Of a stretch of 52,521 bases of DNA, positions 18,070 through 18,127 are shown one piece after another; the first letter of the stretch is position 1, and each line of letters begins with the position of its first letter. The translations under genes and the position numbers were made by a program. A model generated the notes under the pieces. That model made no database searches, was not told the DNA's origin, and saw only the letters and a program-made list of their open reading frames with translations. The DNA comes from Candidatus Woesearchaeota archaeon. Its GTDB lineage: Archaea > Nanobdellota > Nanobdellia > Pacearchaeales > GW2011-AR1. The stretch is taken from positions 3,114 through 55,634 of the forward strand of contig CAYQOY010000004.1 in NCBI GenBank assembly GCA_964419275.1, given 5' to 3'.

Positions 18070-18127
18070 CTACATCACTAAAACCAGAACGAAAGTTTTC
18101 TCGGTGTAAGTGCATAATGTAGGAGGT
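18070..18127 (+). promoter_or_regulatory. Structured 5' leader of rpl1-rpl10-rpl12 overlapping the SD
   Basis: Long imperfect hairpin 18070-18122 capped by C-GAAA-G. SD AGGAGGT at 18121-18127. TATA TTTATAAA at about 18032-18039. Confidence 0.6.

Follow-up and report, generated by a model that had tools for sequence, protein, structure and literature searches.

Autoregulation of uL1 synthesis through mimicry of the rRNA site of the protein is known from E. coli, Methanococcus and yeast, and the L1 sites of different species can substitute for one another. To our knowledge, archaea have yielded very few cis-regulatory RNAs, and the DPANN lineages, which are tiny and uncultured, have yielded none. 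As cited in PMC1920258, uL1 of Methanococcus represses all three genes of its operon (Mayer et al. 1998), and PMC3616713, PMC1920258 and PMC2175363 trace the MvaL1 operator of Methanococcus and Methanocaldococcus to Hanner 1994, Mayer 1998 and Nevskaya 2005. As published, the L1 consensus comprises an internally bulged stem, a G-A pair and an unpaired A (PMC3616713). This invariant motif is the one contacted by domain I of L1, whereas domain II makes additional contacts, with the rRNA only, and the feedback is based on this difference (PMC2175363). For the RPL1B element of yeast, binding was shown by EMSA and its requirement by mutants (PMC7732827).

Here, we describe a structured RNA element at the predicted 5' end of the rpl1-rpl10-rpl12 mRNA of a Candidatus Woesearchaeota archaeon, which was found in a stretch of 52,521 nucleotides (the window), and we discuss it as a candidate operator for uL1. 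It would share with the Methanococcus/Methanocaldococcus operator the same rpl1-rpl10-rpl12 operon, the mimicry of rRNA and the expected self-repression by uL1.

Results

The rpl1 operon and its predicted transcription start

The operon follows an FG-GAP gene and encodes uL1, uL10 and the P1 stalk protein (Table 1). The uL1 gene is intact and typical, with conserved N- and C-terminal stretches; the PDB matches of its product are to uL1 and include 4v4n, 1u63 and 1mzp, and the stretches RKFNQTVE and LTMS are retained. The second gene, rpl10, has no Shine-Dalgarno (SD) sequence of its own and starts 19 nt past the rpl1 stop codon, behind an AT-rich gap (18765-18783), such that it probably depends on rpl1 translation. 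For rpl12, a strong SD, AAGGAGG, is located within the 3' end of rpl10 (19610-19629), and this gene may be less tightly coupled to rpl1. The pairing of an SD-less rpl10 with a strong rpl12 SD fits coupling of rpl10 to rpl1 together with a freer, higher translation of the multi-copy stalk protein.

Table 1. Features of the rpl1 leader and operon (positions refer to the window)
Feature	Position	Strand	Remarks
Intergenic spacer upstream of rpl1			93 nt; from the end of the FG-GAP gene at 18038 to the rpl1 ATG at 18132
TATA box TTTATAAA of the rpl1 operon promoter	18032..18039	+	shares bases with the stop codon of the FG-GAP gene upstream
P1, 5' strand ACC	18061..18063	+	pairs with GGU 18125-27; nt 1-3 of the predicted transcript
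Junction strand J, GUUUAA (GAUUGAA in many relatives)	18064..18069	+	proposed counterpart of 23S loop B
P2, 5' strand CUACAU	18070..18075	+	pairs with 18117-22; taken to match helix 77 of the 23S rRNA (3' strand)
P3 (CACU 18076-79 / AGUG 18109-12) and distal hairpin	18076..18112	+	conserved UUCU at 18098-18101
CAUA bulge	18113..18116	+	possible counterpart of 23S loop A
P2, 3' strand AUGUAG	18117..18122	+	its final G is the first G of the SD
Junction GA dinucleotide	18123..18124	+	hallmark of uL1 sites
P1, 3' strand GGU	18125..18127	+	3' half of the SD GGAGGU
rpl1 (uL1)	18132..18764	+	proposed ligand and proposed first regulated gene; Pfam Ribosomal_L1, 4.9e-33
rpl10 (uL10/P0)	18784..19626	+	Pfam Ribosomal_L10, RL10P_insert
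rpl12 (P1 stalk protein)	19627..19920	+	Pfam Ribosomal_60s

Among the 513 ORFs with a length of at least 100 aa in this genome, 73 have their ATG at a distance of exactly 29 from the first TATA base, where the distribution peaks sharply; this argues that most of its mRNAs are leaderless and start at TATA+29. By this rule, the start of the rpl1 operon is predicted to be A18061, which gives a leader of 71 nt. With this predicted start, the operon would be among the few to have a leader in a genome that is otherwise leaderless. The spacing, an 8-nt TATA box and then 21 nt up to the A of P1, is common to nearly all relatives examined, and in nearly all of them the A at TATA+29 precedes one and the same short conserved motif. 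The 16S rRNA of this largely leaderless genome still has the CCUCC tail, and since its 3' end is GAUCACCUCCU, with the tail CCUCCU, the AGGAGGU of the leader is a true SD.

A scan of the locus for bacterial-type promoters and terminators returned nothing relevant. Rfam 15, searched over 17500-20500 at E <= 10, gave just a tRNA at 20239-20313 and noise. This tRNA (71 bits) overlaps the mechanical start of a 655-aa helicase-like ORF (from 20278), such that the true start of the ORF must lie further downstream. Over the leader itself (18039-18131), no Rfam 15 family was matched even at E <= 10, in agreement with an initial annotation of this DNA that had judged the leader apparently uncatalogued.

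The hairpin and the junction at its base

The initial annotation had described a long hairpin with a GNRA cap as the whole leader of the operon, with its 3' arm overlapping the SD, and had held that a transcription start downstream of 18090 would refute it; the predicted start at A18061 lies upstream of the hairpin. All 18 pairs that it listed are Watson-Crick, namely those of P2 and of the CACU/AGUG stem of P3 (Table 1), above them ACC 18083-85 with GGU 18103-05 and AG 18086-87 with CU 18100-01, and at the top AAC 18088-90 with GUU 18095-97, enclosing GAAA 18091-94, while the CAUA bulge and an internal loop AAA/GUA are left unpaired. The 3' arm does run into the AGGAGGU at 18121-27. The GNRA cap is a valid pairing, but the annotated structure reaches only -11.1 kcal/mol as compared to an MFE of -12.6 over the identical 53 nt, i.e., it is 1.5 kcal/mol worse, and the cap is found only here and in the closest relative (L002). 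The MFE structure deviates in the cap only, where AGAA pairs with UUCU around an 8-nt loop and no GAAA tetraloop is formed. Nor is the hairpin the whole leader or its core: what is conserved at the core is a junction, to which the second helix, P1, and the loop J, both of which had been left out of the hairpin, contribute.

Together with 2-nt flanks, the hairpin has an MFE of -14.2 (z = -2.78; equalled by 2 of 200 shuffles), and the folding z-score of the whole predicted leader is -1.6. By itself, the folding of the hairpin is only modestly above chance.

At the base of the hairpin, P1 and the CUAC/GUAG end of P2 build a junction in which C-(GUUUAA)-C stands opposite G-GA-G. Between the two helices, an asymmetric internal loop is thus formed, with a J strand of 5-7 nt opposite 2 nt. 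The SD GGAGG (18122-26) is composed of one base of P2, the GA and two bases of P1. P1 contributes only -1.4 kcal/mol, and the bases of the SD are 42-89% unpaired in the ensemble, which suggests that the free mRNA should be translatable. In the MFE structure of the predicted transcript of this genome, P1 is replaced by a pairing of CCGUUU (18062-67) with AAAUGG (18130-18135) over the start codon; this pairing is not conserved in relatives.

Conservation and covariation in the family

The strong evidence for structure is comparative, and it shows far more than folding does. The rpl1 upstream regions of 29 relatives contain the hairpin with evident compensatory changes, and they contain the second helix, P1. 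A covariance model (R1), built from 16 sequences, has exactly one match in the own genome at E <= 10. It matches in 85 of 151 genomes of the order, including 82 of the 105 of the family, where there is one match per genome apart from one weak extra match at E 0.003. Outside the family, the full-length model gives one match each in two other families of the order. All 51 aligned R1 matches are located upstream of rpl1 and on its strand, 44 of them within 37 nt. In one relative (L026, G023), the match lies approximately 570 nt upstream of rpl1, and the intervening stretch consists of N.

In the R1 alignment, 91.6% of the cells are paired, as compared to 30-54% when the partners are slid, and double (compensatory) changes occur in 14 of the 19 pairs. 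The covariation score is 0.545 versus 0.07-0.10 in controls and was reached by none of 500 shuffles. P3 shows compensatory changes in eight of its nine pairs, and the second pair of P2 (14-84) is UA in 34 cases, CG in 14 and AU in two, and is never unpaired. On a tree of the uL1 protein, this pair has undergone at least 12 changes and the P1 pairs at least 6 and at least 13, though these counts are rough, the tree being a quick one. The forms of P1 among the relatives are ACC/GGU, GCC/GGC, AUC/GAU, GUC/GAC, UCC/GGA and CGC/GCG. A covariance model of rpl1 upstream regions from DPANN, as the initial annotation had envisaged, thus reveals clear covariation in the stems, and the conserved, structured pre-AUG leader of rpl1-rpl10-rpl12 that it had proposed is borne out by stems that are kept in relatives with many compensatory changes. 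A functionless chance hairpin beside the SD would be in keeping with the z-scores of single-sequence folding given above, by which the hairpin (-2.8) and the complete predicted leader (-1.6) are only modestly better than shuffles. However, the conservation throughout the family, the single copy per genome, the fixed position and the dozens of compensatory changes already refute it, and its probability is close to nil.

The junction contains the strictest invariants. In 46 of 46 distinct full-length members, both closing C-G pairs, the A of the GA and the last A of J are the same. The closing pairs of P2 (G18122-C18070) and of P1 (G18125-C18063) are each found in 50 of 50 sequences, and their orientation is fixed as well, with the Gs on the short strand that carries the GA (alignment pairs C5-G88 and C13-G85, 50/50). 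The G of the GA is present in 38 of 46 members and is otherwise A or U; the first nucleotide of J is G, with the potential for a G-A pair, in most members and A or U in several, and the last A of J lies beside the equivalent of helix 77. Outside the junction, the C, A, U and A of the bulge are each conserved in 37-45 of the 46 members, and the distal loop UAnnUUCUAUG is nearly invariant in the family relatives (alignment columns 37-48, in the region of 18080-18108; the CAUA bulge occupies columns 76-79), unlike the distal stem, which is variable. Apart from the junction, no unpaired bases are more conserved than those of this loop, with its T-loop-like UUCUA, and of the CAUA bulge. At the inner end of P2, the registers that leave CAUA or AAU as the bulge score equally; three relatives favour AAU, and two compensatory changes favour CAUA. 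A pseudoknot between the UAUG of the loop and the CAUA of the bulge would be pairable in 78% of cells and shows essentially no covariation.

Resemblance of the junction to the uL1 site of 23S rRNA

For the comparison with known sites, the nucleotide contacts of uL1 were taken from PMC3616713, PMC2175363 and PMC7732827. Methanogen sites were sought by a pattern search in 114 genome stretches, and those of Methanocaldococcus and Methanobrevibacter, which both lie inside the rpl1 ORF, were read. The leader junction corresponds to the uL1 recognition motif of the organism's own 23S rRNA, in which helices 77 and 78 flank the GA and loop B forms the facing strand, in a circularly permuted form. In the L1 stalk of that rRNA (L031), GGUGG-GA-GC leads into helix 78 and returns as GC-GAACUUGUAAUA-CCACC, and the leader shares with it the two G-C-closed helices that flank the GA and a loop that ends in A. 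The GA strand is also alike further upstream, where the 23S rRNA reads GUG-CAUAGCAUA-GGUGG and the leader GUG-CAUA-AUGUAG. Read from 5' to 3', the GA strand of the leader is AGUG-CAUA-AUGUAG-GA-GGU and the other strand ACC-GUUUAA-CUACAU-CACU; the order and polarity of the elements agree with the 23S rRNA on both, as the former runs from helix 76 through loop A, helix 77 and the GA to helix 78, and the latter from helix 78 through loop B and helix 77 back to helix 76.

What differs is how the strands are connected. In the 23S rRNA, it is helix 78 that ends in a hairpin cap, with helix 77 opening to helix 76, whereas in the leader the equivalent of helix 77 is capped and that of helix 78 is closed by the 5' end of the mRNA. 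The chain of the leader has its closed end at helix 76 and its open end at helix 78, and it is thus a circular permutation of the rRNA site. The strand order of known uL1 sites (helix 77, GA, capped helix 78, loop B, helix 77) was not found in the leader, where the GA is on the 3' strand. Furthermore, the loop measures 5-7 nt in the leader and 12 in the 23S rRNA, and helix A is CUAC/GUAG in most leader members as compared to CCACC/GGUGG.

The sites of Methanocaldococcus and Methanobrevibacter read GUGAAG-GA-GGCU / AGCC-GAGAAA-CUUCAC. The Methanocaldococcus site likewise has G-GA-G opposite C-GAGAAA-C, and its loop GAGAAA and the GAACUUGUAAUA of the own 23S rRNA are the comparators of J. The junctions of the leader, of the own 23S rRNA and of Methanocaldococcus all fit the published L1 consensus (PMC3616713) and the universal Rpl1 motif (PMC7732827). 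The methanogen site begins 22-26 nt past the A of the ATG, and thus within the rpl1 ORF, has the strand order of the rRNA and lies apart from the SD, whereas the leader element belongs entirely to the 5' UTR, has the permuted order, begins at the predicted +1 and contains the SD. In the present rpl1, a Methanococcus-type site within approximately 30 nt after the ATG (at the codons for ...EA..KPRNF...) is absent, and about 18160-18215 hold only a GAACUU/AAGUUC pairing and no G-GA-G; the initial annotation had rightly set the leader apart from the Methanococcus-type site by its place. A caveat to the likeness is that GGAGG would be conserved as an SD in any case, such that part of its resemblance to the GGGAG of the rRNA comes free, and that the motif is small.

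A leader structure that senses no ribosomal protein has to be considered at this point. Pairing of the 5' end and the hairpin might shield the mRNA from 5'-to-3' decay, or might set a fixed and low level of translation by partial masking of the SD, and indeed P1 involves the first three positions (+1 to +3) of the transcript as predicted, part of the ensemble has the SD in pairs, and a leader that is retained where most genes are leaderless could serve stability or the tuning of translation. However, such a structure would leave unexplained why two As, the unpaired one of the GA and the one that ends the loop, never vary, why the orientation of the closing G-C pairs and the asymmetry of the loop are fixed, why there is a single copy per genome and only before rpl1, and why the features that are conserved are those of the uL1 site in 23S rRNA. 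We thus regard it as unlikely.

A minimal form across the class

At the level of the class, the full-length model gave one true match to a minimal form and one weak match. The minimal form was identified by reading the rpl1 upstream regions of 60 genomes from approximately 50 families of the class, and a minimal junction was found before rpl1 in 37 of them, a few of which are doubtful, as compared to 6.1 in shuffled controls. Typically, CCC is followed by 5-8 nt, of which the last is A, and by CUAC or CUGC; a short loop separates these from GUAG, which continues into GA and GGG a few bases ahead of the ATG. In one distant relative, the minimal form measures 35 nt. P1 occurs as CCC/GGG, UCC/GGA, CUC/GAG, GCC/GGC, AUC/GAT-type, ACC/GGU, GUC/GAC and UGC/GCA, and in most minimal forms it starts 1-3 nt past TATA+29. 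The sequences of J at this level are unrelated save for the final A. That the junction alone survives across the class argues that it is the functional part of the element. Sampling at the level of the phylum added no lineage beyond the class.

These data also bear on the question whether another protein reads the element, for instance the uL10-(P1)n stalk complex, as in the L10 leaders of bacteria, or L7Ae on a kink-turn. Both uL10 and P1 are encoded in the same operon, an asymmetric loop with a GA beside a G-C-rich helix superficially recalls a kink-turn, and the distal loop and the bulge could be the site of a second protein. Against this, a kink-turn has tandem sheared G-A pairs and so needs a GA on the bulged strand too, the class-level loop sequences are unrelated except for the final A, no likeness to the stalk-base rRNA was seen, and no r-leader or k-turn family of Rfam was matched. 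We consider recognition by another protein very improbable. The kink-turn itself, as a site for L7Ae, was tried and rejected: only 9 of 46 members have a G as the last base but one of the long strand, and this base is not conserved at the level of the class. As to the ligands that the initial annotation had suggested, uL1 or uL10, the former would fit, and nothing in the analysis points to uL10-aP1.

Divergent members of the family

Several members of the family depart from the common form. In six of the 51 (L003, L035, L044, L049, L059 and L060), a non-conserved spacer of 59-69 nt separates the operator from the ATG; these spacers are partly GC-rich with hairpins, and a second SD-like sequence, GAGG or AGGA, is found at the ATG. 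In these six members, occlusion of the SD therefore cannot be the whole mechanism. In one of them, L003, an out-of-frame AUG directly follows the SD of the operator. Two of the relatives examined (L009 and L021) have just two clean P1 pairs.

The 5' strand of P1 is missing in L018, L238 and five genomes of the genus g28 (L236 and L247-L250). There, GUAG-NA is followed by a small hairpin (GGC-uau-GCC, GAC-uucg-GUC or GCG..CGC) and then by a GA-rich tail, for example GACAAAUA or GAAAUUAG, that resembles loop B of the 23S rRNA. In g28, the 5' CUAC and its loop pair with a downstream segment, and the resulting long-range helix covaries (ACAGAAG/CUUCUGU, CUACAGA/UCUGUAG, ACUCUCAG/CUGAGAGU); it is not found in L018 or L238. 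Possibly, this subgroup has the rRNA-like, unpermuted connectivity, or a two-state switch.

In this context, it has to be noted that a minimal uL1 motif leaves the nearly invariant distal loop and the CAUA bulge unaccounted for. The extension that is specific to the family may be viewed as a bulge resembling loop A and a P3 resembling helix 76, plus the T-loop-like UUCUA cap, and helix B may be closed by the 5' end of the mRNA in most genera and by its own hairpin in g28, L018 and L238. A rather doubtful reading is that one family carries the same uL1 operator in two or three strand connectivities, with an extension that rebuilds a fuller mini L1 stalk engaging domain II of uL1, or a two-state switch. 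If this is true, the family would present a single RNA-protein operator in a series of circular permutations that arose in nature.

Discussion

We consider it probable that the 71-nt leader is an autoregulatory operator for uL1, in which excess uL1 would clamp the junction and hide the SD. During the synthesis of 23S rRNA, uL1 would go to the ribosome, the marginal P1 would let the SD breathe, and the operon would be translated. Surplus uL1 would bind the junction, lock P1 and mask the SD from the tail of the 16S rRNA. In the bound state, rpl1 would be shut off and, by coupling, the SD-less rpl10 too.

The element is kept across the class, its support by covariation is unusually good, and a candidate ligand is obvious. 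Searches of Rfam 15 and of the searchable literature brought up no permuted 5' UTR operator that contains the SD, is conserved across a DPANN class and is elaborated in one family; no cis-regulatory RNA in DPANN was found in that literature at all, and no Rfam 15 family matches the present element. If uL1 does bind the junction, mimicry of an rRNA site can outlast a re-wiring of the strand connectivity, and searches for r-protein operators by linear hairpin models would miss such sites. The operator and the ribosome-binding site would be merged in one stretch of five bases. Furthermore, a feedback control of ribosome synthesis would have been retained even in genomes of 0.5 Mb, in which the other mRNAs are mostly leaderless.

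Outside the archaea, two known systems come closest. The bacterial L1 leader (Fu et al. 2013, PMC3616713), which precedes rplK or rplA, is likewise a small, irregular, bulged stem with a G-A pair and an unpaired A, located in the 5' UTR near the ribosome-binding site. However, it has the unpermuted order of a hairpin, controls rplK-rplA and bears no relation to the present leader by sequence or covariance model. The yeast RPL1B element (Roy et al. 2020, PMC7732827) also lies in the 5' UTR, with two stems around the universal Rpl1 core, but it is eukaryotic, has no SD, and its core is GGAAG. The leader described here most likely represents a known principle, the feedback of uL1 through mimicry of rRNA, in a form and in a lineage that have not yet been catalogued.
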